Below are positions 9,819 through 62,284 of a DNA stretch of 64,000 nucleotides, in pieces. The translations under genes and the position numbers were made by a program. Under the pieces are notes generated by a model. That model ran no database searches and had not been told where the DNA came from. It worked only from the letters and a program-made list of their open reading frames with translations. How positions within the stretch are numbered: position 1 is the stretch's first letter; each line of letters starts with the position of its first letter. The stretch comes from Eledone cirrhosa (taxonomy: Eukaryota), in assembly GCA_964016885.1 (NCBI GenBank), contig OZ024742.1, forward strand, positions 29,512,001 to 29,576,000, written 5' to 3'.

Positions 9819-10052
9819 CAGTATATACATATATATATATATATACAAACCAACTTTTTTAAATGGAAGTTGATCAATATTTTATGGTACGTCAAATTTA
9901 TTTATAAAACTGCTTATATATTGTATTTTATCTGAAGAAGGCATGCCATATTTTTAATATGGTATCCCTGAAATATGTATAATGAAATAAATATGGTTTT
10001 ATAAATATAGTTTCCATTTGTTTAATATCGTATATATATACGTATATATATA

Positions 10053-10099
<47 letters not shown>

Positions 10100-10103
<4 letters not shown>

Positions 10104-12177: not shown

Positions 12178-12185
<8 letters not shown>
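10950..12185. mobile_element. Large family A fold-back: ~590-bp arms, 4-nt loop (11589-11592), ~50-nt tail
   Basis: 11003-11588 is the near-perfect reverse complement of 11593-12185 (mirror ORFs appear in the track); HHR core CTGACGA-T-GTTGCA..TGCAAC-GAAA at 11928-11955. Confidence 0.9.
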
Positions 12186-15897: not shown

Positions 15898-16047
15898 TTG
15901 CGAGGTTTTTTATATGAAATCGTGTGTCGAAACAAATATTGTTATACTTGGGGAGGGTCATATTTGTGTAATATTACCAGAATTAATAACATGTTATTAA
16001 TTCTGGCAATATTACACAAATATGACCCTCCCCAAGTATAACAATAT
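15895..16047. mobile_element. Short family A fold-back, loopless centre AACATGTT
   Basis: Arms 15936-15991 and 15992-16047, 41-nt tail, (TA)n flanks. Confidence 0.85.
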
Positions 16048-16224: not shown

Positions 16225-16400
16225 AAGGTATGCGGTACTGAGACGGGAAGTACTCTATGCATGGGAAGCAGATTGGGTATAGAGGAAAGTAAAAACCGGA
16301 CCACAGCGCCAAACAGTTCCGGCTTGTATTCAAAAGCCAAAATACAAGCCGAAACCGTTTGGTGTCGTGGTTCGGTTTTTACCTTCGGGTTTTTACGTTT
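16225..16400. mobile_element. Fold-back element family I in (GA)n/(CT)n
   Basis: AAAAACCGGACCAC...GGCTTGTATT / AATACAAGCC-GAAACCGTTTGG...GGTTCGGTTTTT; tail with AGTACTC; related pieces at 16100-16165 and 20495-20600. Confidence 0.55.
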
Positions 16401-20445: not shown

Positions 20446-20877
20446 AGTTGGCAGATAAAGGCGAAATTGCTTGGTCTCTGCTGAGCTGAGACTGAGGAGA
20501 CCATAAATCATGGGAGTACTCCGTGTATGAGGTAGAGAGGTATGTAAAATCCCGAACGCGGTACCAAGCGGTTTCGGCTTGGCACCGCAGTTACAATTTT
20601 ACAACTCTCTCTCTCTATGTATCTATCTTTCTATCTATCTATCTATCTATCTCTCTATCAGACGTGTGTCACTTCGCGGAGAAGTTTCCGTTAATTTATG
20701 TAAGGAAAAAACGTGAGTTTTTAGTTCAATTTTATATCATTGTGTAACTTGACCACCCGTCTGGACCTTCAGGTGGTGGGTCAACTCATTTTCGCCCCTA
20801 CAGGGGCGGAATATCCATTTAAAAAATTTTTCTCCATCGAATCTTGGAAAAAAATATTGTAAAATTTTGATTACGTT

Positions 20878-22772
20878 ATGAACGCTGCGTCCAACGATAA
20901 TGGTGGTGGAGAGGCGGTAAGACTACAAAGCTCGCAGTCAACAACGTCTTCTTCACTAGATACTATAGAGATGGAAAGACAAAATGAAAATAAAAAAACG
21001 AATTCACATCCAAACAACACAAATGACACCAAACAGCTCAATGACAACAAAAATAACAGCAAAACCAATAATGATGATAAAAGCAACAATGATAACAACA
21101 ACAAAGAAAAAAATAAAGACAACGCCAATAACACCAGCATCAAAGACAACAACAACACCAAGGAAAATACGGATGATACCAACATCGGTGACAACAAGAA
21201 TAACAACAATAATGACAACACCACCAATACGGATTCCACAAAGAAACCAAAAATCTCCTTTGCGGAGAAAGTTCAAAAGAAAGAACAATTGATATATCTC
21301 GACATAACAAATGCTGAACACCTTTTAAAGGACGCTAAGAGATATGTCACCTTCGAAAAAAATGGTGCTTTCAGCATCAATTCTCCGGTAGAAATTCGCA
21401 AGGAAACTGCTCTCAAAACGATAGTTTTTAGGACAGTTTCCAATTCTACCCGAAAACCAGTCCAATTGTCACAGAAAGATATTGAACTGGTTTTCAAAGA
21501 TTCAATGAATTCATTCAAAGAAGCAAACTTTTTGGGAGTATTTCGGTACTGATGAAGGATCAATTGACGGCCCAAAATTACTCTGTGTCGCCAATTGTAT
21601 CCAACCTGTACACCTTTTTCCCTACATACATGGGAAAAAGGACACAAAAGATCAGAATCACAAGTGTCACACCAAAGGTGAACATATGGTGGATACTGTG
21701 CGGCTTCATCAATTTTGATGAAGACAGAATACTGTCAGTAGGCAAGTCCCCCAGAGATGTATTCAATGGGACTAGCATTGAAGTTCTGGTGCAAATGAGC
21801 CCAGAGCGAATAGCTATGATCCCACAGCGTGTACTCCTGGACGGACTTACCTACATAAACCTTTCGGTTGAGGGTAGGCGGCCTTCATGTTACCATTGCT
21901 TTAGCAGGGGTCACCTGAGGGCTTCCTGTCCTAAACTAATGAACCAAAAAAAGGCTCTTCTGCCAACACCCATCAAAACAACACAACCACCAACACCATC
22001 ACTACAACAACAACACCAACACACAAAAATAACCACAACAAACACAGTCCCACCCAACCTCACTCCACCTAAAACCACTGCAAAATCACATACAGACACA
22101 ACAGCTCCCCAAGACATACCCCTCCCCAATCACACAGACGATACAACAGATGAGGCTATCTCGCCATCACCCAGTGAAGACGAGGGAGAACCCCATCGCT
22201 CGAAAAGAAAGAAAAGACATCACAAAAGCAAAAAACCAGCAAACACTACCACAAACATACAACCACCAACACAAACAACAAAAATATCACAAACAAAACC
22301 CCCACCTCCTGAAAACAAAATACCTACAACAAAACGAAAGCACACACAAGAACTACAGACAAAAACAAACACAACACAAGAAAATTACACTTACACTTAC
22401 ATAAACACTGAAAACAAAACACTAATGGAGACCATTACGAACGACCCTTCGGCTTTCACCGAAGGGAAAACTTTCGCCCACTCTATAAAAAATAGCAAAA
22501 AAATGAACCTAAAACTGATTAGGGTCCCTATACAAACTTATAGGTCCCTAAAAGAAACATTTGAGAAGGATGTGGGGAATTCCTGCGTGAAACCACTCAA
22601 CCGCGTCCTTCTCAAATGCCTCCCCACCCCAGACACCCCCATCCCACCAGACCCCACCCCACCAAACATCTGCGTCCCCACCCCGCCGGAAACCACCACC
22701 CATCCAGACAACCCCTCCAACACCCCCATGGAAATCGTGCGGCCTGGTCCCCAGGAGGCGAAGGGTGAGTGA
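20878..22772 (+). pseudogene. ORF1 (gag-like, CCHC zinc knuckle), frameshifted near 21510
   Basis: CYHCFSRGHLRASC; the alternative frame FIQRSKLFGSISVL aligns with FIRKDRLYGSISVL of copy 2, indicating a small deletion. Confidence 0.85.
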
Positions 22773-22805
22773 TCTCTTTTCCTCTTTTAACTTTTCAGCA
22801 CCAAC

Positions 22806-25800
22806 ATGGCCAATATAAGAGTTGGATGTGTGAACGTACGCGGCCTGGGGATGCCCTGGAAACAGGGCAAACTCTTAAACGACCTCAGGTCGCACAGTTT
22901 GGATGTGGTAGCCATTTGCGAGTCCAGGATCCACGGCGAGCGACAGCTGGCCCCCATCTTCGATGACTTTGAGATCTACGCATCTCTCTGTCAACCGGGG
23001 GGTGGGGGCGGAGTTGCCGTTTTGCTGCGGAAACACCTGGGCCTCGTAACACAGACGGTACATCTGGACCCGGAGGGTCGACTGGTGGTCCTAGACGTTG
23101 ACGGTAGTGAAGGTGGAGCGTTCAGGCTGGTGGCCGCATATGCCCCATCCGGGACACCGCGGCCAGACTTCTTCAAACGTCTAGAGACTTTTCTGGGAAC
23201 GTCCCGCTCCTTGCTTTTAGTGGGGGACTGGAATGGAATCCTAGATGCACGTTGGGACTATGTGGGAGCATGTCCCGATAAAGGGGGGTGTAACAGCCTC
23301 AAACAGTTAATCGACCGATTTGACCTGGCCGATAGATATCGACTAGATTTTCCGACTGCGCCACTGTGGACGTGGAGTAATCGTAGCGGAACATCTAGAT
23401 CGTACCTAGATAGGGTTCTAGTTAGAAATAAGGATAGGGACATGTTAAGCTGTCCACAAATGTTCATGGTTGCCTATTCGGATCACAAACTAGTGACCTG
23501 CATGGCCAACCTTGATAGAACCCATAGACAAGGACCCGGCTACTGGAAGCTGAACTTGTCGTTACCGACAAGCAAAGCCTACAGTAGACGGATTAGCACT
23601 TTAGTTAAACAGCACTTGACAGGGGCCATTGTCAACAACAGATGGTGGTACTCTCTCAAGAGGGCAGTTAGATTAGACTCGATAGTTTTTAGTAAAGAAT
23701 TAGCGTTAGATAGAAATAGAACCGAGAAGGAACTGGTAGATAAAGTAGAAGAGGCTATTAGAAGTGGCAACGTAGCCAGCGTGCTAGCAACGAGAACGGC
23801 CTTGGACCAGTTCTTCGACGCAAAGCACGAGGGCTGCGTTGTCAGAAGCAAAATACGTGCTCTGGGAAACGAGGGAGCCAAAGCTGTTAGCTGGGCCCGA
23901 GTGACGGAGGCAAAAAGTGGCAACAAGTCCACGATTCGGTCTTTGAAGGACCAAAACGGACGCGTGATACGTGAGCCGAAGCAGATGTGTGCGGCTTTTC
24001 AGCGGCACTTTGCTCGGCTGTTCGGGGGGAGCGGCGCGCCGGGAGAGGCTATGGATTTCGGTCCATACCTCGACGGCCTACCGCGACTCTCGGACAGCGA
24101 GGCGAAGTTCTGCGAAAAGCCGATTTCAGCCACTGAGATAGGGGACGCGCTGAGCCAATGCGGCAAACGCAAATCTCCAGGTCTCGACGGTCTACCCTAC
24201 GAATTTTACGTAGCAATGCCGGACTTATTCTCCGGTCTCCTGGAAGCGGTCTACTGCAACTGGCAACAGAACGGGAGAATTCCCAGTTCTGTAACCGGGG
24301 GCGTGGTCACACTAATCAGGAAGGACGAGAATAAGGGGGATGACATAGGCAACTTCCGGCCCATAACTCTGCTAAACACAGAGTTACAGATTTTGGCCAA
24401 GGTGTTGGCAAAGAGGCTGGCGCTTGTCGTCGAGAACCTGGTGGGAGAAGCGCAGACATGCGCGATCCCGACCAGGTCCATACACGACAACCTCCACCTC
24501 ATGCGATACATCATAGAGAGGGTAGGGTGTAAACCCGGCTTCGGTGGGGCCCTGATCAACTTGGATCAGTCTAAGGCTTTCGATAGGGTTGACCATCGTT
24601 ACCTGGATGCGGTGCTCGAGGCGGCAGGCTTCGGACCCGTGTTCAGGGGCTGGATTGCTGCAATGCACAACAGCAACATCTGCTCAAGGGTCAAGGTGAA
24701 CGGTTACCTCTCGGAGCCGTTCCATATTACGCGATCCATTCGACAGGGATGCCCTCTCTCCTCCCTTCTGTACGTACTGACTCTCGAGCCACTACTGCGG
24801 AAGCTGGAGCTATTGCAGGGCATCCCTCTGGAACCGGGACTGCGGAAAGCGGCGTCGGCCTACGCCGACGACGTGACAGTAATGGTGTCGAGCGCCTCGC
24901 AAATCGAGAAAGTCGGCACCTTACTAAAGGAATACGAAAGTCTCACAGGAGCGAAGCTGAACCGGGACAAGTCCATCGGTTTGCAACTCGGATCGTGGAG
25001 AGGCAGACCGATGCCTTCCGATGGCGTCGTCGGACGCTGGACGGAAGGACCGGTAAAGCTGCTCGGGGTCTGGTTTGGTCCGGACCTCCAGGTGGAGAAG
25101 AACTGGAACGAAGTGACGGCCAAGGTGTTTGCACTCACCCAGAAGTGGGCCGAGTGCAAACTATCCTTGAAAGGTCGAGCGGAGGTGGCGAACACTTTTA
25201 TAGCGTCCGCCATCTACTACCGCTTGACCGTCGTGCCTTGTCCAGCCAAAACGCTCGCCAAAATGGAGCGCGCCCTCTTCCGATTCCTTTGGAAGAGGCG
25301 GGCTCCTTTGGTAAGAAGATCCATCTGCTGCCAACACCCTTCTAACGGAGGGCTGGGGATGCCGTGGTTGACGATGCGCAAACACGCGCTCAGGCTGCGG
25401 CATCTCTACGTATTCCTCACCGGACAACCGGTGTGGGCCCCGTTCGTGAGGCGAGCCTTCCCACGACTCGTCTCACTGACCGAGCTGCAGTCCTGGGTCA
25501 AGCAGAGACCTAGGAAAATGGGCGACTGGCACATCGAATGTGCTCAGGCGCTCACAGCCCTCTGGCAGGCGGACCCGGCGATCAGTGGAGACTCCACTTC
25601 GTCATTCTATAGAGGGTTGGTCCGCAGCAAGTGCGACGACGCGCTCGGTGAAACTCTAGGCGTGGAGGAAGATGAACTGGCCAGTCTGTTCGGTAGGACC
25701 TTCCGCCCGGGACCGATGGACAACTTCCAAAAGTCCCTGGCCTGGCAGTGCTACCGAGGAGCTCTACCAGTTCGAGACAAGCTCTACAGACATGGGCGCC

Positions 25801-26243
25801 CGGGCAGGGACCCTGCAAAAAAGATCTGTCCGAGGTGCGTGCGAGACGAAGAAACCGTCGCGCACGCATTCATACACTGCCCGGGCGTCACTGACCTGTG
25901 GGGATATGTAGAACGACTATTGTCGCGGGTGGGACCAATCCAGTTGACCACCGAGTCCATTGTCATGATCAAACCGCCACCCTCCTTCAAAAACGAAGGA
26001 GAGGCGGTTTTCCTTTGTGTGATAGCTATGGCGAAAGAGGTTGTATGGTGGACAAGGTTGAAAGGGCTGAGGTCAGACACCTTTCTCTCCGGCCAACAAC
26101 TGATTCTTTTTTTCAAATACCACTTTGGAAGAAGAATCAGGATGGAGAGAGAGGTGCTGTACCGCAGCAAGTTTTATGAAAGGTGGGTGAAAGTGGCGAG
26201 AATGGCCCGAGTGAATGGGCCTTCTCTCTATATCAGCCTGTAG
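22806..26243 (+). CDS. Intact 1145-aa ORF2: AP endonuclease + reverse transcriptase + C-terminal Zn motif
   Basis: NVRGL, GDWN, SYLDRVL, SDHKLV (APE); KSPGLDG, FRPITLLN, DQSKAFDRV, RQGCPLS, AYADD (RT); CPRC..ETVAHAFIHC. Confidence 0.96.
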   Translation: MANIRVGCVNVRGLGMPWKQGKLLNDLRSHSLDVVAICESRIHGERQLAPIFDDFEIYASLCQPGGGGGVAVLLRKHLGLVTQTVHLDPEGRLVVLDVDGSEGGAFRLVAAYAPSGTPRPDFFKRLETFLGTSRSLLLVGDWNGILDARWDYVGACPDKGGCNSLKQLIDRFDLADRYRLDFPTAPLWTWSNRSGTSRSYLDRVLVRNKDRDMLSCPQMFMVAYSDHKLVTCMANLDRTHRQGPGYWKLNLSLPTSKAYSRRISTLVKQHLTGAIVNNRWWYSLKRAVRLDSIVFSKELALDRNRTEKELVDKVEEAIRSGNVASVLATRTALDQFFDAKHEGCVVRSKIRALGNEGAKAVSWARVTEAKSGNKSTIRSLKDQNGRVIREPKQMCAAFQRHFARLFGGSGAPGEAMDFGPYLDGLPRLSDSEAKFCEKPISATEIGDALSQCGKRKSPGLDGLPYEFYVAMPDLFSGLLEAVYCNWQQNGRIPSSVTGGVVTLIRKDENKGDDIGNFRPITLLNTELQILAKVLAKRLALVVENLVGEAQTCAIPTRSIHDNLHLMRYIIERVGCKPGFGGALINLDQSKAFDRVDHRYLDAVLEAAGFGPVFRGWIAAMHNSNICSRVKVNGYLSEPFHITRSIRQGCPLSSLLYVLTLEPLLRKLELLQGIPLEPGLRKAASAYADDVTVMVSSASQIEKVGTLLKEYESLTGAKLNRDKSIGLQLGSWRGRPMPSDGVVGRWTEGPVKLLGVWFGPDLQVEKNWNEVTAKVFALTQKWAECKLSLKGRAEVANTFIASAIYYRLTVVPCPAKTLAKMERALFRFLWKRRAPLVRRSICCQHPSNGGLGMPWLTMRKHALRLRHLYVFLTGQPVWAPFVRRAFPRLVSLTELQSWVKQRPRKMGDWHIECAQALTALWQADPAISGDSTSSFYRGLVRSKCDDALGETLGVEEDELASLFGRTFRPGPMDNFQKSLAWQCYRGALPVRDKLYRHGRPGRDPAKKICPRCVRDEETVAHAFIHCPGVTDLWGYVERLLSRVGPIQLTTESIVMIKPPPSFKNEGEAVFLCVIAMAKEVVWWTRLKGLRSDTFLSGQQLILFFKYHFGRRIRMEREVLYRSKFYERWVKVARMARVNGPSLYISL

Positions 26244-27139
26244 ATTGAGGAAAAGGAGGAGGAGAGGAAAGGAGTACAAGCTCTTCGTACTCCTGGAGAT
26301 GAGGGTTGCACATTTTTTCGGGGGTATGTGTTACCCATATAAACTGTCTCCCTCTATTGGGGAAAATCGACTAACTTTTAAATTCCATCTGTGATAACAT
26401 TTTACACGTTTTTATTGTATGTAAACTTCCCCCTTTGTATTTGTCCCCTTCTTTTGTGCCCCTGTGGCTAATAAAGAAATATATCTATCTCTATCTATCT
26501 ATCTTTCCCTCTCTTTCTTTCTCTCTCTCTCTCTTTCTCTTTCTCGTCCTATCTCCACCTCTCTCTCTCCCTCTCTCTCTCTCTCTCCCTCTCGCTCTCT
26601 CTCTCTATCTATCTATCTTTCTCTCTATCTATCTATCTATTTTTCTCTCTCTCTCTCTTTCTCCCCTCTGTCTCTTTCTCCCCCCCCCCCCCTCTTTCTC
26701 TCTCTTTCTATATATATATTCTTCAGTCACCCCTCCTCTTTCGAACGTGAAGCATTTATTTTGCTTTGTCTAATGGCTAGAATATATGCGGCTCACCACA
26801 CCTGCATAAACATCCAAGCCACCGATGTCATCCAAGAGAAAAGTAATGACCGATACAGCTTGGCACCAGTCCTATCATCTCTTTTCTGAAGCTGAGTAAA
26901 CTGGAACAACGTGAAATAAAGTCTCTTGCAGCATAGTCTCGTTGAATTCTGTAAGTAATATCAAAGTGAGATGACCAAACTGACGAACTGGGCGAGCATA
27001 TTTAGAGCCTCTCTCAGAAACACGTCTATTCCGAAAATGTAATGTCGGTGTAATAAAAAAATTGTTCGGATTTGTATGTTTGACACTCCTGGTAAGAAAC
27101 TCTCAGGAGAGCTGGACAGCAGAAGGTCTTCAGAGAAGA

Positions 27140-27478: not shown

Positions 27479-28132
<654 letters not shown>

Positions 28133-28137
28133 ATCTA

Positions 28138-28732
<595 letters not shown>

Positions 28733-28804
28733 CTCTCTCTATATATATATATATAAATGAAAGGTATAGAAAACATTGTAGCGAAAAGCCAACAGTATTC
28801 CATA

Positions 28805-28873: not shown

Positions 28874-29061
28874 CGAAAGAAATGTGGTAAGGAACCAGGA
28901 GGACCATAATGCACCAAAGTACTCAATACTTAGGGTAGTAGAGTGGGTAATAGGAACGAGTAGGAACCCGACGGCTGAGCTCAAGCCGTTTCGACGGCTA
29001 ATTCTGGACAGAATTAGCCGTCGAAACGACTTGAGCTCAGCCGTCGGGGTCTTAATTGTTC

Positions 29062-29065
<4 letters not shown>
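28871..29065. mobile_element. Fold-back element family B
   Basis: Same centre, tail and GTTCCTAT end as 7159-7356. Confidence 0.85.
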
Positions 29066-29093
<28 letters not shown>

Positions 29094-29901
29094 GTTTGTG
29101 AGCATGTATATATATATACATAGATATATTTCTATATATATATATATATACATGTTTGTGAGCATGTTTGTGAAATATAATGAATAGTAGCGGTGGTTCT
29201 CGCCCAATACATATTCTTGGTGTGTTTTTGTTATTTGTTTATGTATTGTTTTTTGTTACACTTAAATGACTTCAGATATTTGTTGAAGCCCCTTTACATA
29301 CCCGGTGAATAAAAAATATGCTATTACCATATCGGTAGTATATATGGATACATATATATAATCATATGCGTGTGTATATGGGTTTATATATATATATGTG
29401 TGTATATATATGTTTATATATTTATATATATATATTTATATATATGTATACATACATATATATACATATATATATATAAATATATGTATATAAAGATATG
29501 TATGTGCATATATATACATATAAATATGTGTGCGTTTATATATGCATATATATATATATATACATATATATACAAATATATGTATATAAACATATGTATG
29601 TGCATATATATACATATAAATAGGTTTGCGTTTATATATATATATGCATATATATATACATATATATGTATGTATCTCTCACTATCTATCTATCTATCTT
29701 GATAGAGTAAGACACGCTTCACATCGGCTCCGCTATTCCATCGGGATTTACCCTTACTATTGTAAGTACCGGATAAATTTTTCAGTGCAACACATTTGGA
29801 ACACTAACCCCTGTTATTTAGGGAAACATTTTTGCATTTACCCCCTTTTTAGGGGGTAAAATAAATATCTATTTTTGCCGAAAAATTTCTTTCTTGGCAG
29901 C

Positions 29902-31719
29902 ATGGCGGAAAAGATGGCAGACATGTCTGCCATTAGCTCTGCCACGCCCCCCAAGTTTGAAGAACAAAAAATAATTACAACAAAATTACACAATGAAACA
30001 AACAAAGAAAATGAAAAAACAAATGTTAAGGAAAATGAACAAACACAAAATAATACAAATAACAACAGGGCAACTTTCGCCCAGAAAACAAAACAATCCA
30101 TTACATACACACCAATTGACCTAACTTCCGCCAGAGAAAAACTGGCCGAAGCAAAGAAACACATTGTTTTGGGGGAGAACGGAATGTTTTCCATTAACTC
30201 CCCCCCAGAATTCAAGAAAGAAAGAACAGAGAACACAGTTCTCTTCAGAACTATACTGAACCAGACAAGAAAGCCAGCACAGCCCAGCCAAATGGAAATA
30301 GAGTTAGTCCTAAAAGACTATATGAAGAATATTCTCTTCATACGAAAGGACCGACTCTATGGCAGCATTTCGGTCCTAACAAGAGACAAGGAAACGGCGG
30401 AGAAGCTTTACCTAAGCCCACTCTCATCGACAACATACAGCTTCTATCCCCCCTACATGGGTAGAAGAACACAGAGAGTAAAAGTAAAAACAATGCTGCC
30501 CACAATGGACTTCTGGTGGGCTATTGCTGGCTTCATAGACATGGGCGAAGACACAATGCTGTCAATGGGGAAGGCAACTGGAGATGCGTTCCTGGGAATG
30601 GGCCTCGACATACTAGTCCAAATGAGGCCCGAAAGAATAGCACAAATCCCGGATCGCATCTGGCTGGATGACCTTACCCCAATAGACATAATTGTAGAGG
30701 GGAGAAGACCAGCATGCTATTTATGCATGGAAAGGGGACACGTTAAGGCTAACTGCCCGAAACGTATCCCCCAAAAAGGACTATTGCCCACACCCACCAC
30801 AAACAGTACACCAACACCACCCACCTCCAAAAATACACTAATACCACACACAGCAAACAAAATACAGACACCACCAACCACAAACACAACACAAACATCA
30901 CCACCACCAGCACCAAACACAAGCACGACACAAAAATCACCACCACCAACCACAACACAAACATCACCACCACCATCACCAACCACAAGCACGACACAAA
31001 CATTACCACCACCACCACAAAACCCATTCCAAACAAATAATAAAAAAAACAGTAACAAATCTACCCCTCCCGCAAAAAAAAAACAACCACACAACACGTC
31101 CCTCCCACCTAGCGCTGAAGAGTTTCCCCCAACTTCTGAAGAAGAAGGAGGAGAAGCCTTCAGACAAGTTAAAAGAAAAAAAAGAAAACACACACCCAGC
31201 ACACCACAAATAACCCACACACAAACACCAACTCCAATCAAAAACACCCCACCCTCAACAAACAAAAATAAATCTGCGCCTCCCCTCTCCGAAACATTGA
31301 CAGCATCACAAAAAAAGACGTTGCAATACACATATATAAATAAAGAAAACAAAAAGCTGGTTAAATTAATAAACAATAAACCTATGGTGCAGACCGAAGG
31401 GCCAAATTTTATCTCAACAGAGAACTTCACCCATTTAAAAATGATAAAGGTCCCTCTGGACCTTTATCGTTCCTTAAAAGAACAATTTAGACGGGACGTG
31501 AGCCCCCCCTGTTTAAAACCGTTGAATCGCGTCCTCTTGAAATATTTCCCCATAACCGCCCCTCTCCCTGACACAACTCCAAATACCCCAACCCCACCAC
31601 ACACGTGTACCCCCACACCACCACAAAACATCCCTCCACCCAACACACCTGATGCCATGGAAATTACGCAACCCGGAGAGGTAAGTGCTTTTCTTTCTTC
31701 ACTTTCAACACCAAAATAG
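29902..31719 (+). CDS. Open ORF1 with CCHC knuckle and Pro/Thr-rich linker
   Basis: First ATG at 29902; GRRPACYLCMERGHVKANC; homologous to copy 1 ORF1. Confidence 0.88.
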   Translation: MAEKMADMSAISSATPPKFEEQKIITTKLHNETNKENEKTNVKENEQTQNNTNNNRATFAQKTKQSITYTPIDLTSAREKLAEAKKHIVLGENGMFSINSPPEFKKERTENTVLFRTILNQTRKPAQPSQMEIELVLKDYMKNILFIRKDRLYGSISVLTRDKETAEKLYLSPLSSTTYSFYPPYMGRRTQRVKVKTMLPTMDFWWAIAGFIDMGEDTMLSMGKATGDAFLGMGLDILVQMRPERIAQIPDRIWLDDLTPIDIIVEGRRPACYLCMERGHVKANCPKRIPQKGLLPTPTTNSTPTPPTSKNTLIPHTANKIQTPPTTNTTQTSPPPAPNTSTTQKSPPPTTTQTSPPPSPTTSTTQTLPPPPQNPFQTNNKKNSNKSTPPAKKKQPHNTSLPPSAEEFPPTSEEEGGEAFRQVKRKKRKHTPSTPQITHTQTPTPIKNTPPSTNKNKSAPPLSETLTASQKKTLQYTYINKENKKLVKLINNKPMVQTEGPNFISTENFTHLKMIKVPLDLYRSLKEQFRRDVSPPCLKPLNRVLLKYFPITAPLPDTTPNTPTPPHTCTPTPPQNIPPPNTPDAMEITQPGEVSAFLSSLSTPK

Positions 31720-34700
31720 ATCAATTGAGAGTTGGCTGTTTGAACGCGCGTGGCCTGGGCTCAGCTTGGAAGCAAGCAAAGCTTCTAAGTGACCTCAGGT
31801 CACAAAGTATAGATGTGATGGTTGTTTGCGAGAGTCGGATCAGCAGCGTGAGACAGCTGGCGCCCGCCTTCGATGACTTTGAGATGCACGCATCTCTCTG
31901 TCAACCCGGAGGTGGGGGGGATTTGCCGTACTGCTGGATAAACGTCTGACTCTCGACGTACAGATTGTTCACTCGGACCCGAGGGGTCGATTACTGGTGC
32001 TGCACGTCGGAGGCGGTGAAGGCGGGGCTTTCAGACTGGTCGGTCTTTATGCTCCCTTCGGGACGGAAAGAGCCGACTTCTTCCAGCGTCTGGAGACTTT
32101 TCTAGGAACGTCGCGTTCCCTGCTTTTAGTGGGGGACTGGAATGGAATCCTAGATGCGCGTTGGGACTATGCAGGGGCATGTCCCGATAGAGGGGGGTGT
32201 AGCAGCCTCAAGGGGTTACTCGATCGATTCGACCTGGTCGATAGATTTCGACTAGATTGTCCAACTGCGCCAACCTGGACCTGGGCAAACCGCAGTGGAC
32301 AATCTAGATCGTACCTAGATAGGTTTTTGGTTAGGAGTAAGGATAGGGACGTATTTAGTTGTCCAGAACTGATCATGGTTGGCTATTCAGATCACAAATT
32401 AGTGACCTGCGTGGTCAACCTTGATAGAACGCATAGACAGGGTCCCGGTTACTGGAAGATGAACTTGTCCTTGCCGACAAAGAAAGATTACAGAAACCGG
32501 ATTAGTAGCTTAGTTAAGATGCGGTTGACGGGAGCGATCGTCAACAGTAGGTGGTGGGTATCTCTAAAGAGAGAGATTAGAGTAAGTTCGATAGGTTACA
32601 GTAAGGAACTAGCGGCAAATAGAAATAGGAAGGAAAGGGAGTTAACAGATAAACTAGAAGAGGCGATTAGGGGCGGAGACGTAGCCAGAGTGTTAGCGGC
32701 GAGAACGGCGTTGAGCCAGTTCTTTGACGCGAAGCACGAAGGCTGCGTTGTCCGAAGTAAAATACGTGCTTTAGGAAACGAGGGGACCAAAGCTGTTAGC
32801 TGGGCCCGCGTGACAGAAGCCAAGAGTGGGATTAAATCCACCATTCGGTCTTTGCGAGACCAGGATGGACGGGTGATCCTTGAACCTGAGCGGATGTGCG
32901 AGGCCTTTCAAAGGCACTTTGCTCGACTGTTCGGAGGGGGCGGGGGGCCGGACGGGAATGTGGACTTCGGTCCATACCTCGACGGTCTACCGCGTCTTTC
33001 GAGCGGCGAAGCGGAGTGCTGCGAAAGGCCAATCACAGCCACTGAAATCGGGGAAGCGCTCAGCCAATGCAGCAGACGCAAATCTCCGGGTCTCGATGGT
33101 CTACCAAACGAACTTTATTTAGCTATGCCGGTCTTGTTCTCCGAACTCCTCGAGGCTGTCTATTGCAACTGGCACACAGAACGGGAGAATTCCCTGTTCT
33201 GTGACCAAGGGCGTGGTCACGCTAGGGAGGAAGGACGAGAGCAAGGGGGACGACTTAAGTAACTTTAGGCCCATAACTCTGCTGAATGCAGAGTTACAGA
33301 TTTTGGCCAAGGTGTTGGCGAAGAGGTTGGCGCTTGTGGTGGGTGGTTTGGTGGGAGACGCGCAGACATGCGCTATCCCGTCCAGGTCCATTCACGACAA
33401 CCTCCACCTCATGCGATACATCATAGAGAGGGTTGGCAACGAACCCGGCTTTGGTGGGGCCCTGATCAACTTGGATCAATCTAAGGCGTTCGATAGGGTC
33501 GACCATGGTTACCTGGATGCGGTGCTAGCGGCGGCGGGCTTCGGACCCGTTTTCAGTGGCTGGATTTCTGCCATGCACAGTGGCAACATCTACTCTAGGA
33601 TTAAAGTAAACGGCTACCTCTCGGAGCCGTTTCAAATCACCCGGTCCATCAGGCAGGGGTGCCCCCTCTCCTCCCTTCTGTACGTATTGACTCTCGAGCC
33701 ACTGCTGCGGAAGTTGGAGTTGCTGCGGAGCATACCCCTGGAACCGGGATTGCACAAAGCGGTCTCGGCCTATGCCGACGACGTAACAGTAATGGTGGCG
33801 GACGCCTCGGAAATCGGGGCGATCGCCACCCTACTGGGGGAATACGAAAGGCTGACGGGGGCTAGGCTGAACCAGGACAAGTCAGTCGGTTTGCAACTCG
33901 GAACGTGGAGGGGCAAACCGATGCCGTTAGACGGTATCGTCGGGCGGTGGACGGAGGGCCCGGTGAAGCTGCTCGGGGTCTGGTTCGGACCGGACCTCCA
34001 GGTGGAGAAGAATTGGGGCGAGGTGACGAGCAGGGTGATTGCGCTGACCCAGAAGTGGGCCAAGTGCAAACTATCACTGAAAGTTCGGGCGGAGGTGACG
34101 AGCGCTTACATAGCGTCCGTCATCTACTACCGCCTGACCGTCGTGCCTTGCCCCAAGGAAAAGCTCACCATCATGGAACGCATGCTCTTCCAGTTCCTCT
34201 GGAAGAAGCGGCCTCCCATGGTGAGGAGATCCATCTGCTGCCAGCACCCTTCGAAAGGAGGGCTGGGTATACCGTGGCTGTTGATGCGTAGGCACGCATT
34301 GAGGCTACGGCATCTACAGGTATTCCTCAACGGTTAGCCGGTGTGGGCCCCGTTTGTGAGGCGAGCCTTCCCACAGCTCGTCTCGCTCACCGAACTGCAA
34401 TCCTGGGTGAAGCAAAGACCGAGAAAACTGGGCAACTGGCACACCGAGTGTGCCCAGGCGCTCACGGCTATCTGGCAAGCGGACCCGACTATCAGTGGAG
34501 AATCCACCTCGACATTCTATAGAGGGTTGGTGGCTAGCAAGGGCGACGACACCCTTGGAGAGTCGCTAGGCATGGAGGAGGACGAACTGGCCAGCCTGTT
34601 CGGTAGAACTTTCGGCCCGGGACCCATGGACAACTTCCAGAGGTCCCTGGCCTGGCAGTGTTACCGGGGTGCTCTGCTCGTTCGAGAAAAGCTCTACAGA

Positions 34701-35153
34701 CACGGGCGCCCGGGCAGGGATCCCGCGAAAAAGATCTGCCCCAGATGCGTGCGCGACGAGGAAACCGTTGCGCATGCACTGGTACACTGCCCGGGCGTTG
34801 CCGATCTGTGGGGCTACGTCGAACGACTGCTGTCGCGTGTGGCGCCGATTCGATTAACGGCCGAGTCTGTGGTGAACATCAAGCCGCCTCCTCCCTTCAG
34901 AAATGAATCAGAGGCGGTCTTTCTGTGCGTAATAGCCATGATGAAAGAGGTTGTGTGGTGGACGCGCCTGAAAGGTCTGAGGTCGGGTGACTTTCTCTCC
35001 GGCCATCACCTGGTTTACTTCTTCCGATACCACTTCGGAAGAAGGATCAGGATGGAGAGAGAAGTGCTTGGCCCCAGACAGTTTTATGAAAGGTGGGTGA
35101 AAGAAGCGAGAATGGCCCGTGTAAATGGGCCTTCTCTCTACATTGTTCTGTAG
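31716..35153 (+). pseudogene. Disrupted ORF2 (APE-RT)
   Basis: ATA where copy 1 has ATG; frameshifts at ~31920, ~31980 and ~33177; TAG at 34335 where copy 1 encodes Q; YADD retained. Confidence 0.92.
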
Positions 35154-35987
35154 GTGAAGAAGTGAAGAGGAAAGGGGGAGCGCCTCCTCTCTGGGCTTCC
35201 CCCGCGAAAAGAGTTGCACACTTTTCGGGGGTATGTGCAATCCCCAACACGCCCCCTCCCTTTTGAGGACTTTTTATTGTTATATTATTATTGTTATTCC
35301 TTTTTTCTTTACTCGATTTATGTAAACTCCCCCACTGTGTAAATGTCCCCTTCTTTTGTGCCCTCGTGCCAAATAAATAGAAATTTATCTCTATCTCTCT
35401 GTGCATGCGTGTGTGTGTGTGTGTATGGCTGTGCGTGTGTGTGTGTGTGTGCATGTGTGTGTGTGTGTGTGCGTGTGTGTGTGCGTGTGTGTGTGCGTGT
35501 GTGTGTGTGTCTCTGGGCACTCTGTTAACAGTTAAATGTAAATGTGCCTACTTGATCACGTAAAGATATGTACACAAAAGTTTCCCCGCATCACCAGCAG
35601 AAAGATCCCCAAATGTTCAACAAGCGTAAAGCAATTATATTTGTGTGTACCTGTGTGTGTGTGTGTGTGTGTTTGTGTGTGTCTGTATGTGACAGAGTAT
35701 GTGTGGGTGTCTGTGTGTGTTTCTGTGTGTGTGAGTGTGTCTGCGAATACACATATACTTGCATTTAAGCACATCTAATATTTGTGTGTGTGTGTGTTTG
35801 TATGGGTAGTGTGTAAATGTGTGTATTTTTATGTGCGCCTTTGTGTATCTGTGAATAGATATATATTCATATATAGACACATGTAATATATGTGTGTGCG
35901 TGTTTTTGAGTGTATGTTTAGATATATATAAAGTTGTGCTCTAAACAACCTAAGAGTACGATAAATCAATATATTTATATATATATA

Positions 35988-36392
35988 TACAAATGTAACC
36001 AAAGCTGGGTATATATATATGTATATATATATATATATATTTCGTTTCTGAATTTGTTTAGCAAGATTCTTTATCTGAAATCGTGTGTTGAAACCGATAT
36101 TGTTATACTTTGGGAGGGTCATGTTGCCAATAAGAAACACACGCGTGTGTTTCTTATTGGCAACATGACCCTCCCAAAGTATAACAATATATATATATAT
36201 ATATAAATGTAACCAAAGCTGGGTATATATATATATGTATATAATATATATATATATACAAATGTAACCAAAGCTGGGTATATATATATATATATATAAT
36301 ATATATATATATATATACAAATGTAACCAAAGCTGGGTATATATATGTATATAATATATATATATATATATACAAATGTAACGAAAGCTGGG

Positions 36393-38280: not shown

Positions 38281-38710
38281 CATAATATATAAGATCAAAA
38301 GATGGTTAAATGAGTTCCATGTATTTTATTATGCGCATTTCAAAAACAAATATCATCATGCAATAACTTTTGTGTTTTCATCAGATAAAATAGGAAGACA
38401 TGATATGAAAGTTAAAAACACTTGTGGATAGTGCAGTTTTAAATCAACATATTATATGTTGATTTAAAACTGCACTATCCACAAGTGTTTTTAACTTTCA
38501 TATCATGTCTTCCTATTTTATCTGATGAAAACACAAAAGTTATTGCATGATGATATTTGTTTTTGAAATGCGCATAATAAAATACATGGAACTCATTTAA
38601 CCATCTTTTGATCTTATATATTATGTATACTCCAGTCCTACAAACTGTAGAGTGCTTCTTATCCGATATCTGCATTGCTTTATTGTACTACAATAAAACT
38701 CACCTCCTAC
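38278..38710. mobile_element. Fold-back element family E: 175-bp arms, 1-nt loop at 38453, ~80-nt tail
   Basis: 38278-38452 is the reverse complement of 38454-38628; (TA)n on both sides; no complete HHR found. Confidence 0.88.
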
Positions 38711-39748: not shown

Positions 39749-39751
<3 letters not shown>

Positions 39752-40184
39752 TAAATATACACGGGTGTGTATGATTGTGTATAGAAGATTATATTAATAA
39801 GAGGAATTTCAACTTTGTCTGATTTACTCGTTTTATTTACAATCCTTTAAAGTTATAATGGTATTATAATGAAATAGTATGATAGAATATTAAATTCTAA
39901 GTGTTAATTGAACAAGTACTTTCATGATTTCGCAATCTTCAGGTTCATAATATGTGGTGACAGTCAAGTTTGCAATTTTCAACTTTTCACAGTTGAAAAT
40001 TGCAAACTTGACTGTCACCACATATTATGAACCTGAAGATTGCGAAATCATGAAAGTACTTGTTCAATTAACACTTAGAATTTAATATTCTATCATACTA
40101 TTTCATTATAATACCATTATAAATTTTAAAGGATTGTAAATAAAACGAGTAAATCAGAAAAAGTTGGAATTCCTCTTATTAATA
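39749..40184. mobile_element. Fold-back element family C with an HHR motif on each arm
   Basis: Arms ~39791-39983 and 39992-40184; HHR-like motifs at 39909-39947 (-) and 40028-40066 (+); 42-nt tail. Confidence 0.88.
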
Positions 40185-40206
40185 TATATATATATAGAGA
40201 GAGAGA

Positions 40207-42260
40207 GAGAATTAATACATCTACCAACATATGCGTACAGATGTACACTAATACTAGTAAATATATAAGTTATGTCAAAGTACCTAGGTGGTTCAATGCA
40301 GGGGGATGCAGAACAATTATATGAAAGACATAAAATAAAAAAATTTTAAAAATTAAAAATTAACTTACTTACTAAAATATTCACTCCAACTAATTAGTTT
40401 CTGTAATGGGATAAATATCGAGAATTCATTACGTCATCAGGGAGTCTATTCTTAGCTAAGTTACCAGGCAATGCGCGGACACTAGGAACCCATATAAAAA
40501 TAATAATTCAGTGGATGTAATAAGCTAGCGGGGACTAAATTCCATAGCAATGAAGAAGTTCACTGCCTCTGGTCAGTGGTGGATTCTAAAGAATCAATCA
40601 CGTGACACTGAGGTTAGTCAGTTAGGAGTGGGGTGGTATTATGACAAGAGCCTACTACTACTACTATGAATTATCAGTAGATTTGGCAAGTTTGCTCAAC
40701 AAATAATTTGGAGATAAATATAGAGAATTAATACATCTACCAACATATGCGTACAGATGTACACTAATACTAGTAAATATATAAGTTATGTCAAAATACC
40801 TTGGTGGTTCTATGCAGGGGATGCAGAACAATTATATGAAAGACGTAAAATAAGAAAATTTTAAAAATTAAAAATTAACTTACTAAAATTTTCACTCCAA
40901 CTAATTAGTTGCTGTAATGGGATAAATATCGAGAATTCATTACGTCATCAGGGAGTCAATTCTCAGCTAAGTTCCCAGGCAATGCGCGGACACTAGGAAC
41001 CCATATAAAAATAATAATTCAGTGGATGTAATAAGCTAGCGGGGACTAAATTCCATAGCACTGAAGAAGTTCACTGCCTCTGGTCAGTGGTGGATTCTAA
41101 AGAATCAATCACGTGACACTGAGGTTAGTCAGTTAGGAGTGGGGTGGTATTATGACAAGAGCCTACTACTACTACTATGAATTATCAGTAGATTTGGCAA
41201 GTTTGCTCAACAAATAATTTGGAGATAAATATAGAGAATTAATACATCTACCAACATATGCGTACAGATGTACACTAATACTAGTAAATATATAAGTTAT
41301 GTCAAAGTACCTAGGTAGTTCAATGCAGGTGGATGCAGAACAATTATATGAAAGACGTAAAATAAGAAAATTTTAAAAATTTAAAAATTAACTTACTTAC
41401 TAAAATTTTCACTCCAACTAATTAGTTTCTGTAATGGGATAAATATAGTTACACAATGTAACTATCGAGAATTCATTACGTCATCAGGGAGTCTATTCTC
41501 AGCTAAGTTCCCAGGCAATCCGCGGACACTAGGAACCCATATAAAAATAATAATTCAGTGGATGTAATAAGGCTAGCGGGGACTAAATTCCATAGTACTG
41601 AAAAAGTTCACTGCCTCTGGTCAGTGGTGGATTCTCGATAGTTACATTGTGTAACTATATTTATCCCATTACAGAAACTAATTAGTTGGAGTGAAAATTT
41701 TAGTAAGTAGTTAATTTTTAATTTTTTAATTTTCTTATTTTACGTCTTTCATATAATTGTTCTGCATCCCCTGCATTGAACCACCTAGGTATTTTGACAT
41801 AACTTATATATTTACTAGTATTAGTGTACATCTGTACGCATATGTTGGTAGATGTATTAATTCTCTAATTTATCTCAAATTATTTGTTGAGCAAACTTGC
41901 CAAATCTACTGATAATTCATAGTAGTAGTAGTAGGCTCTTGTCATAATACCACCCCACTCCTAACTGACTAACCTCTGTGTCACGTGATTGATTCTTTAG
42001 AATCCACCACTGACCAGAGGCAGTGAACTTTTTCAGTGCAATGAATTTAGTCCCCGCTAGCTTATTACATCCACTGAATTATTATTTTTTATATGGTTCC
42101 TAGTGTCCCGCGCATTGCCTGGGAACTTAGCTGATAATAGACTCCCTGATGACGTAATGAATTCTCGATATTTATCCATTACAGAAACTAATTAGTTGGA
42201 GTGAAAATTTTAGTAAGTTAATTTTTAATTTTTAAAATTTTCTTATTTTATGTCTTTCAT
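40207..42260. mobile_element. Tandem ~513-bp HHR-bearing array (2.8 copies) plus ~1.2 inverted copies; retrozyme-like, family D
   Basis: Unit starts at 40207, 40723 and 41234; inversion at ~41633; ends TGTCTTTCAT+(AT)n. Confidence 0.85.
40383..40445 (-). ncRNA. Type I hammerhead-like motif (also 41411-41492 -, 42141-42202 +; core mutated in 40894-40956)
   Basis: ACTCC-CTGATGA-C-GTAATG...CATTAC-A-GAAA-CTAATTAG-TT-GGAGT. Confidence 0.75.
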
Positions 42261-42263
42261 ATA

Positions 42264-42383
<120 letters not shown>

Positions 42384-42384
42384 C

Positions 42385-42435
<51 letters not shown>

Positions 42436-42458
42436 CATATAATATATATACATCTATA

Positions 42459-42522
<64 letters not shown>

Positions 42523-42572
42523 CAATATACATATATATATACATATTTATATACATATATATATATATATAC

Positions 42573-42675
<103 letters not shown>

Positions 42676-42890
42676 ATATATACATGTATGTATGTATACA
42701 TACATATAATTCAACATAAAAGAGAGATAAGAACAGATATATACATATGTGTTCAAATCGTAAGGAACCAGATTCATTGCCCGGGAAACATTTCTTTCCT
42801 TGAGCTATTTAATTGGTAAGAGACTATTTTGTGTTTCTAACTCAATATATACCATTAATGAATAAATATATTATACATATATATATTTAA

Positions 42891-52388: not shown

Positions 52389-54700
52389 CTGTTGTATTGT
52401 TAGCGCAAAGGTAAAATGGGAAAACTTTGAATTTGGGTGTCTTATTACTTGCGCATATGTCTAGATGTGCGCTTAGTGGTATCTATCTCGTGGTTGGATC
52501 TCGTAGTTGTTGGCGATGAACTGTCATTCTGTTTCTGAGTGTGAGTTTAGTTTGTCCTATATAATCTTCATTTAATGGCATGAAGTAGATTTTTGGATGA
52601 GCAAGTGAAGTGATTTTTTACAGCAAAATGTTCTCCTGATTTAAATGTATACGTGTTGCCTTCAATGAGGTGAGTGCAGGTTCCACAATTAGGGCGACCA
52701 CATTTTTTGACAGTTGGTTGTGGGTTTGTGGTAGGTAATTTAGCATTGGTGAGTAATGTTTTCAGTGATTTCGGTTGTCTTTTGCTTTTGATTATTTTGT
52801 GTGTTTCAAGGGCTTTTTTCATTCTTGGGTATTGTTTTAGTAGTGGGATGTTCTTGTGAATAGTGTTGTAAGCTTCCGCATTTCTTGGGTTGTGTGTTGA
52901 GATATATGATAGAATATTGGACGTATCTTGAATTTGTTTCTGTTTTCGTAATTCATCAATGCCTATTGCTTTAACCCTTTCATTCCATTATTTATTAGTA
53001 ATGGTGGGTACTCTCTTTCGAGTAGAATTTCCTTTAATTTTTGAAGTCTTTTATTTCGCGTTTCATAATTGTAGACAATTGTGCAAATTCTTCTTGCTAG
53101 GATAAAAGGAATGTTCGTTCTCGTGTGCTTTGGATGGTTGGAGGTGAATAGCAGGTATTGTTTGGAATCTGTTGGTTTGTAGTGTATGTCAGTTTCAATA
53201 GTTGCGTCTTTTTTTAAGATTAAGATGTCCAGAAATGGGAGTTGATCTTGGCTGTATTCCATTGTGAATTGGATGTGGTTATTGATGCCGTTTATTAAGT
53301 TTTTGAAATCCTTCAGTTGGTCGAGTGTGTGGGACCAAAGAATGAGACAATCATCCAATTAGCGTTTCCAATTCTCTGATAAATATTTGTGGAAGTTCAA
53401 TCCGTATTTTGATGTGGACTGTTCATATATCTGGACTTCTAAGTATGCCATGACTAAGTTGGCATAAGTTGGAGCGATTTTTGTACCCATCGCAGTCCCC
53501 GATATTTGCTTGTAAGTACTGCCATCGAAATATTAAAAAAAACTCTGTAAGATGAATTTTAATCCCTCGGTGATGAAGCTTTTTTCTATTCTGCCAGGTA
53601 TCTCATTGGGATATTTCTCTAGCCAGAATCCTATTGCTTCTAGTCCGTATTGGTGTGGGATCGTTGTGTAGAGATTCACTACATCGAAAGACACAATAAT
53701 AGTGTCGTTGTTGACATGTTTGGGGAGGTGGTGTAAGAGGTCCAGATCGTCTCTTACAAGGCTTAGTATGTGTTTGAGAACTAGTTTTAGTAGTATGTCT
53801 ATAAAGTTGCTCAGTCTGTGTGTTTCACATTGTGGGCCCGCTACAATTGGTCTTAATTTAAGGTCTGTGGGGTATTGTGTGTTCACACAGGCTGAGGTGG
53901 ATTGTTTACAGGCATCGTTAATTATTTTACACTTGTGGATCTTCGGTAGTCCGTAAAGGTTACTTGTTTTGTATTCAAAATGTGTTAAATAATCGCGTTC
54001 CTTTTTAGTTAAGTCTTCCTGGTATCGACAAATCAGTGTGTTTAATCTGGTCATTGTTTTTGATTGCTGGTAGTCTTTTATTCTTTCATAGTAGTTAGTA
54101 TTTTGTAAGAGAGAGAACATAGAATTTTTATATTTTTCAGCATCCATAATGACAACAGTACTTCCCTTGTCCGCTTCCTTAATTATAATGTCCGTATTGT
54201 TTTTTTAGTTGGATAAAATCTCCCATTCCCTTCTACTCGTGTTGGGTTTGGGTTTAGGTTGCGGTAGTTCATGGTATGGAAAAGTAGCTATGTGGTCACA
54301 AAATTTGTCCAGAACTCTGTTTCTACCTTTTGTTGGGTTGTAGCTGCTTTAATTCCGTACAATTTATTCGTCGTTATTCTCCTTGTCAAAGAATTCCTCC
54401 GTGAGACGTAATTTTCTACAGAAGTGTGAGATATCGTCATTTATCTCATTGAGGTTAGAGTATTGTGGTGTTGGTGTGAATTTCAGTCCTTTGGAGGGAA
54501 GTTTTACTTTTGGGGCTGAGAGGTTTGTATTTGAAAGGTTGATTATTTTCGGTTTTTCAAAATCGGTTTGTGCTACCGGGTGTCGTGGGTCCTGTAGCCT
54601 TGGTGTAAAAAATGATTTTTCTGGAATGTTTTTTCAATGATATTATTATATCTAATGGTATTTCCCCTGTTGTTGTGTGGTCTTGTATAGAAGTTTCGGA
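52383..54700 (-). pseudogene. Penelope-like retroelement RT + GIY-YIG (Neptune-type Cys linker), decayed and 3'-truncated
   Basis: YGLPKIHK, LRPIV, SFDVVNLYT, GTAMGTKIAPTYANL, WKR*LDDC, YKPTDSKQYL..SNHP, CGRPNCGTC, YIGQT..LRNRMTVHRQQ. Confidence 0.9.
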
Positions 54701-54954: not shown

Positions 54955-56300
54955 CGGCCGCCTTGGACTTTGTCGAGACACTTGCGCCCATCACCGACCA
55001 GGAAAGAAATATCATCCTCCACGCCAGGAAGACAGTCCTACTTTTCGACAACTCCAAATGGATAAAGAGTGCTCCCGACTCCCCCTTCGACGTCAGTATG
55101 GGCTGAGGTCACAGATCTTATAGGATTATTCCTACTAGTTAAACTCACCGATATGTTTCCTGCATTCGGCGGTGGATTGTACCGTGATGATGGGCTCCTT
55201 ACCCTTAAAGGGTACAACCCCAGTAGTACAGACCGGGTCTGTAAATGATTAATCAGCTTCTTCCGCGACTGGGGATTTAAAATAACCCTACAAACATCCC
55301 TAACCCGAGTAAACTTCCTGGACGTTACCCTTGACCTTTATAACGATCTGTACTACCCATACAGGAAACCAAACGATAATCTGCACTACATCCACCGCCG
55401 GTCGAACCATCCTAGAAACATCACCAATAACCTGGTTAAAAACATCTCCCACCGCATATCTCGTTTGTCAGCTAATGAGCAGATATTCGAGGAACATGCG
55501 CCTTATTACAACCATGCCCTCAAGCGGAGTGGCTTCCGTGAGGAAATATCCTATTGTCCAGCTTCCATTAGCGGAACCAGCGGGCGACACCGCCGGTCAC
55601 GCAACGTAACATGGTTCAATCGTCCCCACAACGCCGAGGTGACAACACCTGTCGGGAAAATCTTCTTTAGGCTCATCGAAAGACACTTCCCACTACAACA
55701 CCGCTACCACAACATAATCAACAAAAATACCATCAAACTCTCCTACAGCACCACACCTAACTTTGCACAAAATATCGTCTCCTCTAACAACAAAAATCTC
55801 AACCTCTATGGAAGAAATAACCTAGATAGCAGTGGAGAGCCGACCAGGAGGTGTAACTGTCCTGATGGATCCCTTTGCCCCCTCGACAACAGATGCAGAG
55901 ATCGTAATGTGATCTACCAGTGCAACGTGAGGACGGACACCTCCAACAAAGCTTATATAGGATTAACCGCTTGTGACTTCAAGACCCGGCTATACCAACA
56001 CAGACATACTTTCCGAAACCTGGCCCGGCGTCACGCCACTACACTTTCGAGCCATATCTGGGACCTCAAAGAAAACAATATAACCTATAATCTCACTTGG
56101 AGCTTACTCTCCAGAGCCAACTCTCACACGGGAGGACGCCGTCCGTGTAACTTATGCTCGGAGGAAACATTACAAATGCTGTTTTCGACCGACCAACTCC
56201 TAAACAAGAAAAACTGGTAACTGCATGCAAACACAGATTGCGTAGGACTTACCTCGCCCTCAAACCCCATAATGACCCGGGGGAGTAGACAAGGGCTGAA
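54955..56300 (+). pseudogene. Second PLE (YRDD type), 5'-truncated RT + GIY-YIG
   Basis: FDVSMG, GLYRDDGLL, PYRKPNDNLHYIHRRSNHP, CNCPDGSLCPLDNRC, NVIYQC..YIGLT..FKTRLYQH, CNLCSEE. Confidence 0.88.
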
Positions 56301-57681: not shown

Positions 57682-57972
57682 AGCAAATTATAAACGTAAA
57701 CATGTAAGTATGTTTTTGAAGCGGTGCGCGAGTTTGAAATTAGAAATTAGAAATTATAAGCTTTCACCGTATTTTTAGACTAAAGAAATTTCTAGCCTGA
57801 TAATGGGGTTTATAACCCTCGGAGAAATGGAAAAGGATGAGTGTTGCCGTACATGGGAGTGTTGCCTCCCATGTACGGCAACACTGATCTTTTTCCATTT
57901 CTCCGAGGGTTATAATCCCCACTATCAGGCTAGAAATTTCTTTAGTCTAAAAATACGGTGAAAGCTTATATA
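57682..57972. mobile_element. Fold-back element family F
   Basis: Arms ~57755-57859 and 57867-57972 with several mismatches; ~70-nt tail. Confidence 0.8.
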
Positions 57973-62086: not shown

Positions 62087-62284
62087 GGTAGAACACTGGA
62101 AGGTAATATCCGTAGTGGTAAGCACTCAGTCCATGGGACGAGTTAGGAGTTAGGTAGAAGTAGTTACACAACTGTTAGTTCACCATACCGAGAAGAATTG
62201 TTTCACCTTAGCGGATCTTCAGCTCGTGCTGGGTGAAACAATTGCTCTCGGTATGGTGAACTAACTGTTGTGTAACCCTTCTAT
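62087..62284. mobile_element. Fold-back element family G with HHR at the apex
   Basis: Minus strand 62189-62226: CGAG-CTGAAGA-T-CC-gctaa-GG-T-GAAA-CAATTC-TT-CTCG (the other arm has CAATTG); ~70-nt tail. Confidence 0.8.

Follow-up and report, generated by a model that had tools for sequence, protein, structure and literature searches.

The array of non-coding, hammerhead-bearing units described here very probably has a Penelope-like element (PLE) type of origin, and on balance we think that it is a PLE-like insertion of a hammerhead repeat made by two target-primed cDNAs, one of which folded back to join the other. It lies in a 64,000-nucleotide stretch of the Eledone cirrhosa genome (contig OZ024742.1, positions 29,512,001 to 29,576,000; "the window" below), which is AT-rich DNA with microsatellites throughout. 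A single event here unites a retrozyme-like multimer with the hallmarks of PLE insertions (an inverted head, a one-sided tail and a TA target), and the array lends anatomical support to the idea that animal retrozymes are mobilised by PLE enzymes, for which the main text of 10.64898/2026.07.22.740005 argues from co-occurrence and sequence trees. The individual parts are known: the layout has been published, self-priming was proposed for head-to-head repeats in 2013 (PMC3846280), circle-templated tandems have also been proposed (PMC4209133), and PMC8557442 treats the way in which tandem and inverted structures of PLEs arise as unresolved. We found no paper on cephalopod retrozymes and none that presents a combined two-primer and fold-back model for PLEs, in a search that took in few subscription papers; the comparison with 10.64898/2026.07.22.740005 covers its main text, and its supplements could list similar cases.

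Array architecture and hammerhead motifs

Self-comparison bears out the sequence-only reading of 2.8 head-to-tail units followed by an inverted arm of about 1.2 units (Table 1). The units measure 516, 511 and 399 bp, the last being partial, and the spacings from cut to cut are 511 and 517 nt, rather than the uniform 513 bp first given. They are indeed non-coding (the longest stop-free stretch is 55 amino acids over two units), have a GC content of 34–35% and differ by 9–11 substitutions per pair. The inverted arm, 633 bp long, follows unit 3 and stops at the unit position where the older copy of the family, at 28322, also has its end, which we take to be the "family D site" of that reading. 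The caution attached to its deletions was well placed: relative to its mirror partners the arm has seven, of 1–2 nt, which mostly shorten homopolymers, compared with two gaps between units 1 and 2, and some of its variants may be consensus errors. No target-site duplication is discernible at the array, whose flanks are microsatellite on both sides; the left flank is likely to have served the tail end as target and as priming site, and unit 1 would correspond to the 3'-most unit of the RNA template.

Table 1. Features of the array, the older copy of its family and the other fold-back insertions (positions in the window)
Feature	Position	Strand	Remarks
Microsatellite of the left flank: (TA)n followed by (GA)n	40182..40209		(GA)n/(TA)n also adjoins the tail of the older copy
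Unit 1	40210..40725	-	Ribozyme sense on minus
Tail	40210..40325	-	Left outer end only; 115 nt measured
Tail stem-loop, 16+6 bp	40215..40266	-	Also in units 2 and 3 and at 41806-41857 (+)
Hammerhead motif, unit 1	40383..40445	-	Predicted cut between 40388 and 40387
Unit 2	40726..41236	-	Self-comparison
Hammerhead motif, unit 2	40894..40956	-	GCAA replaces core GAAA; predicted inactive
Unit 3, 5'-truncated	41237..41635	-	Self-comparison
Hammerhead motif, unit 3	41411..41492	-	Predicted cut between 41416 and 41415
19-nt hairpin extending stem II of unit 3	41444-41462	-	Ancestral form
Head-to-head junction, 5-nt microhomology ATTCT	41631..41635		Complementary to 41468-41472; 158-nt loop
Inverted arm (41631-41862 plus 41863-42263)	41631..42263	+	TA end, without tail; many homopolymer deletions
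Hammerhead motif, inverted arm	42141..42202	+	Intact; predicted cut after 42197
Right flank (TA)n tract	42259..42708		Abuts the right end of the array
Older copy of the unit family	28322..28735		80-89% identical; ribozyme core deleted
Other hairpins	7008-7134, 7243-7353, 10357-10427, 11007-12181, 15940-16043, 16285-16386, 27640-28018		
Other hairpins, continued	28953-29062, 36101-36186, 38292-38614, 39795-40181, 57757-57968, 62163-62276		

The type I hammerhead core CUGAUGA occurs at 40440, 40951 and 41487 on the minus strand; the inverted arm has it at 42146 on the plus strand, and the ribozyme-sense strands therefore point away from the head-to-head junction. The motif opens with a 5-bp stem I and CUGAUGA; an additional C precedes the 6-bp stem II and an additional A follows it, after which come GAAA, stem III and a GUU triplet. 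A strict descriptor, composed only after the motif had been seen, matches 1 of 5000 shuffles of the unit (none with a palindromic stem III) and nothing in 100 shuffles of the whole window. Rfam detects no hammerhead family at the array locus at E ≤ 10, and over the whole window and the locus it returns only chance matches of miRNA- or snoRNA-like kind. The palindrome reported in stem III is real, but it is 12 rather than 8 nt long; alone it forms no hairpin (0.0 kcal/mol), and its duplex has an energy of -10.8 kcal/mol.

The sequence-only reading placed a hammerhead in each unit. Unit 2, however, has GCAA in its core instead of GAAA, and three of the four full-length motifs are intact. Such a core change would be expected to abolish hammerhead activity, and in unit 2 it may be a later mutation or a sequence error. 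If it is real, the circle of about 513 nt that had been predicted is not expected from this locus, whose product would be about 1,028 nt instead. Between the array and the older copy the pairing of stem II is kept through one two-sided and one one-sided change, and the 64 nt of the ribozyme core are free of all 40 substitutions listed (of 133) from the reads of relatives, in alignments whose seeding favours conserved parts. Minimum-energy folds lack the active hammerhead fold, and the motif resembles the minimal type of PLEs. It matches the minimal hammerheads of PMC4209133 in type and differs from them in an extra A between C11.1 and G12 (C.A opposition, stem II base) and in the long extension of stem II. 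Folding of the unit as a circle (z about -3.7) was rejected as a sign of structured circular RNA, because 3 of 16 control stretches are at -3.5 or lower. Just downstream of the cut, positions 40799–40883 (minus strand) and their equivalents in the other units hold GUAAGU, a pyrimidine-rich stretch and CUAG; as a guess at the level of motifs, they could be read as a short intron of the kind that PLE terminal repeats retain.

The tail, the fixed ends and likeness to known elements

About 115 nt are present at the left end of the array and missing at the right; the left end abuts (GA)n(TA)n and the right end (TA)n. The stem-loop in this tail stops a few bases short of the tail end. Between the array and the older copy 7 of the 22 pairs of its helix vary, one of them on both sides, and all remain paired; when partners are slid, 16–64% of cells pair, against 100% for the true partners. 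All nine listed family substitutions in the helix likewise keep pairing (chance about 0.03 for random transitions). The claim of covariation rests on the slid-partner control and the read variants, the shuffle control being uninformative with two distinct rows (255/500). The tail folds better in the ribozyme sense than as its complement, both in the array (-24.8 vs -17.8 kcal/mol) and in the older copy (-36.3 vs -24.2 kcal/mol). Each of the two ends of the array falls at a short AUAU tract, immediately 3' of a stem-loop and unpaired by prediction. The unit's longest TA tract sits within the tail helix and is not used as an end. We found no description of a tail of about 115 nt with a conserved 22-bp RNA stem-loop in the available portions of the PLE and retrozyme literature. 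Runs of (GA)n of variable length stand at tail ends (40197–40209, 28729–28740 and 28064–28192), where the unit has a short CUCU; they could possibly come from telomerase-like RT slippage at initiation or from later expansion.

The older copy has the same two outer ends as the array, with the arms swapped: its tail (108 nt) is on the short arm. Its junction has a 4-nt ACGT microhomology, and its arms overlap by only about 14 nt.

According to PMC11167929, a PLE starts reverse transcription at two internal sites near a stem-loop, and these sites define the tail; the element cuts and extends both target strands in vitro, mostly from uncut RNA. The array resembles the PAc Poseidon element of that paper in its AT-rich target and in a tail that two apparent internal RT start sites would define, near a stem-loop on the downstream side of the ribozyme, and by analogy its tail stem-loop and two ends may play a priming role like PAc's. 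PAc is autonomous and starts without target homology, which counts against the process preferred below; the array, unlike it, ends at AUAU tracts, where microhomology may have helped.

PLE insertions are described in PMC8557442 and PMC3846280 as partial tandems with an inverted 5'-truncated copy, a tail at one end and a (TA)n bias. Like the EN+ PLE insertions of those papers, the array is a partial tandem with a head-to-head inverted 5'-truncated copy, a one-sided tail and a (TA)n target (the bias of Neptune and Naiad), and like EN+ PLEs it has a minimal type I hammerhead upstream of the tail. Target-site duplications are not discernible in the EN+ insertions, and at the array the microsatellite flanks would make one hard to see. 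Since its layout is the published anatomy of PLEs, the array is likely to be a passenger of such elements, and the earlier claim that a retrozyme-like unit was moved by PLE enzymes is likely to be right. Unlike the EN+ insertions, the array has no ORF and repeats complete non-coding units, its inverted arm exceeds one unit, and its tail (about 115 nt, 108 in the older copy, with the conserved 22-bp stem-loop) compares with one of 30–40 nt in EN+ PLEs.

With metazoan non-LTR retrozymes (PMC7229834; 10.64898/2026.07.22.740005) the array shares non-coding head-to-tail units with type I hammerhead motifs, a low GC content (34%, below 45%) and co-occurring PLEs. The unit, of 511–535 nt, is above the 150–450 bp given in PMC7229834 and within the 51–972 bp given in 10.64898/2026.07.22.740005. 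The array differs from these retrozymes in that its ribozyme looks more like the PLE type than like the canonical hammerhead with its contacts between loop 1 and loop 2, its middle ribozyme is mutated, and its family appears to consist mostly of truncated ends; neither the available text of PMC7229834 nor the main text of 10.64898/2026.07.22.740005 describes retrozymes with an inverted head and tail. The latter calls a retrozyme active if it has two consecutive complete ribozymes. Here the ribozymes of units 1 and 3 are intact and that between them has GCAA, and for that reason we call the array retrozyme-like.

Two PLE relics lie in the window, one at 52568–54204 (minus strand) with a broken RT and GIY-YIG and a CxxxxCxxC linker (Neptune-like), and a second at 55249–56220 (plus strand) with a broken Penelope-like RT/GIY-YIG. 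The first has homologues in octopods and other molluscs, with 432 hits among 901 candidates, and among the best 120 hits the octopod ones are 57–71% identical. Pfam assigns no family to any of the four relic fragments searched, and the identity of the relics as PLEs rests on the annotations of homologues and on motifs. The unit contains no RT/GIY-YIG ORF and is not an autonomous PLE, and it has no homology to either relic. The Neptune-like relic speaks for the process preferred below, and the failure to find an autonomous partner of the unit in the window speaks against it. A pattern search of a collection of genome contigs for related PLE loci matched 67 stretches, none of which was confirmed, and the two loci found in a metagenome scan with a 20-nt core pattern have no further likeness to the unit and were discarded as chance matches.

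How the units and the inverted arm may have formed

Six markers shared among the units give nine testable states in the inverted arm. A pure mirror copy fits five of them, as does a pure second cDNA from the TA end; a hybrid that mirrors close to the junction and is independent at a greater distance fits seven, and so does a mirror with one conversion tract. These fits reject the two simple models without later change and leave the hybrid and the mirror with conversion unseparated; the hybrid has a free switch point, which, with the equal fit of a mirror plus a single gene-conversion tract, counts against taking it as the single answer. Two indel markers are in mirror order in all four of their states, a derived base at column 378 is shared by units 1 and 2 and missing from the inverted arm, and a 4-nt deletion is present in unit 2 and the inverted arm and absent from unit 1.

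Fold-back is favoured by the short loops of the other hairpins in the window: 12 of the 13 have loops of 10 nt or less, and only about 0.22 of independent arm pairs would fall within 10 nt of each other, in a list whose ascertainment by self-BLAST favours short loops. A second primed cDNA is favoured by the fixed second end and by the overlap of only about 14 nt in the older copy. In the combined process that we prefer, a Neptune-type PLE reverse transcriptase/endonuclease acting in trans would cut both microsatellite strands at the (TA)n tract, and one DNA end would prime at the tail-end site and the other 115 nt upstream, at the two ends that the array displays. The long cDNA would copy 2.8 units, and the units of its template would have differed from one another beforehand; that template was most likely not one circle but a linear multimer left uncut, or several RNAs. 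Its 3' end would then fold back at the 5-nt microhomology seen at the junction and make the sense strand, which could anneal to the second cDNA and give a head-to-head arm and a tail confined to one end; the record would since have been obscured by point changes, conversion and probable errors of the consensus. The snap-back first proposed is retained in this process as far as the junction microhomology and the short loops go; in its pure form it fits five of nine states and cannot make the older copy without a later deletion.

We would extend this process only tentatively to a joint reading in which inverted repeats arise by two-ended priming and fold-back capture, multimers come from uncut heterogeneous RNA and the stem-loop is the landing signal. 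If that were true, the 0.5-kb non-coding unit would be a minimal substrate for the formation of PLE tandem and inverted structures. Its two fixed ends, conserved tail stem-loop and marked units offer a concrete substrate and predictions for work on the PLE mechanism.

The sequence-only reading had instead proposed rolling reverse transcription of a circle and then snap-back; the circle is a published model (PMC4209133, PMC7229834). Spelled out, the RT would pass 2.8 times round one ribozyme-made circle, the cDNA would snap back, and all differences would be later. The junction microhomology, the mirror order of the indel markers and the conserved ribozyme core agree with this, and yet we consider it unlikely. 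Units made from one circle should be alike, and the 19-nt hairpin is in unit 3 and absent from units 1 and 2, while the shared derived variants form a mosaic; mirror order fails in four of the nine states, and the fixed family end of the copied arm and the older copy are left unexplained. Hammerhead arrays, we caution, are not always products of one RNA circle; unequal units would also be allowed by an uncut multimer, by template switching or by later duplication of DNA.

Reads from other individuals or relatives (the best runs share at most 0.29 of words) bear on the same point. They were aligned to 41476–41995, in which each unit position is present once. In RAD run X13, from a relative, 114 molecules stop at the tail end, where the neighbouring depth is 420, and about 790 reads lie in the tail compared with about 18 at the unit-to-unit junction just beyond it, a further point against a single circle; that junction makes up about 2% of the family reads. 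From this drop in depth most copies of the family look truncated and arrays look rare, within the limits set by RAD bias and divergence. Stem II without the hairpin is rare in relatives, with one contig in X1 and one read in X13 by our reading of the joint table, and the fold junction is crossed by none of the 24 pieces listed (of 5269).

The same depth profile, in which most family copies look like 5'-truncated ends and not arrays, speaks for a history at the DNA level, in which the unit is the terminal repeat (pLTR) of an autonomous PLE, or was derived from such an element by deletion, and a shorter inverted insertion came first, with duplication and conversion of DNA later. That route is discussed in 10.64898/2026.07.22.740005 and would suit the derived base at column 378. 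It is nonetheless improbable: the 4-nt deletion is shared by unit 2 and the inverted arm and not by unit 1, the unit has no ORF remnant, and the unit junction occurs at low depth in relatives, so the closed unit is not private to this locus.

Twin priming only, in which two independent cDNAs were joined by microhomology without any fold-back, is hardly probable. The arms of the older copy are not copies of each other, a shifted register accounts for three shared derived states (columns 78, 101 and 128), and both strands are extended in vitro (PMC11167929), all of which agree with it; but it fits only five of the nine states, and it predicts unequal arms, at odds with the 12 short-looped hairpins even though their ascertainment is biased. 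That the inversion or the array is an artefact of sequencing or assembly (a fold-back read or a mis-polished repeat) is very improbable indeed: the seven short deletions, and a base missing at 41875 that is present in all of the covering contig depth in two of three contig runs, suggest that the arm is probably poorly polished, but of the four substitutions private to the units that it would mirror the arm has none, its end is the family-specific one also found in the independent older copy, it joins unique flank, and the 13 other hairpins display the same biology.

Other hairpins and elements in the window

The 13 other fold-back insertions found by self-BLAST belong to several families and show the PLE pattern, as the earlier idea of one pathway for multimers and hairpins would have it. 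Most combine a (TA)n end with a tail on one side. In nine of them a microsatellite lies no more than 5 nt from the end of one arm, and eight of these nine have an extension of 43–84 nt on the opposite side. A hammerhead-like core is present in five of the 13, in every case reading outward, and related copies fold at differing points (11007 and 15940; 27640 and 39795). The insertion at 10102–10485 has a tailed long arm, a 32-bp fold-back, a jump of about 134 nt and a tail-less inverted arm of 58 nt; it is possibly a fold-back plus a second cDNA, and a later deletion could also produce it.

A hairpin family at 39750–40186 and 27640–28064 adjoins the unit family at each of its two copies, arranged differently at the two, and has its own hammerhead, a palindromic stem III and an AC-rich stem-loop in a 45-nt tail. 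A composite of the hairpin at 39750–40186 with the unit was rejected, since the two loci do not agree in order and orientation, and the neighbourhood probably reflects shared (TA)n targeting. A solo minimal hammerhead-like motif lies at 9932–9990, outside the flagged hairpins. The window also holds two LINEs in the same orientation (20863–26480 and 29860–35384, 79% identical over 3.7 kb), the first with an open 1150-aa ORF that has endonuclease, RT and zinc-binding domains, and a mariner-type transposase fragment at 1551–2087. A 620-bp repeat occurs at 580–1220, 62386–63029 and 63379–64000, two copies of which, at the window end, are 99.7% identical and about 995 bp apart.
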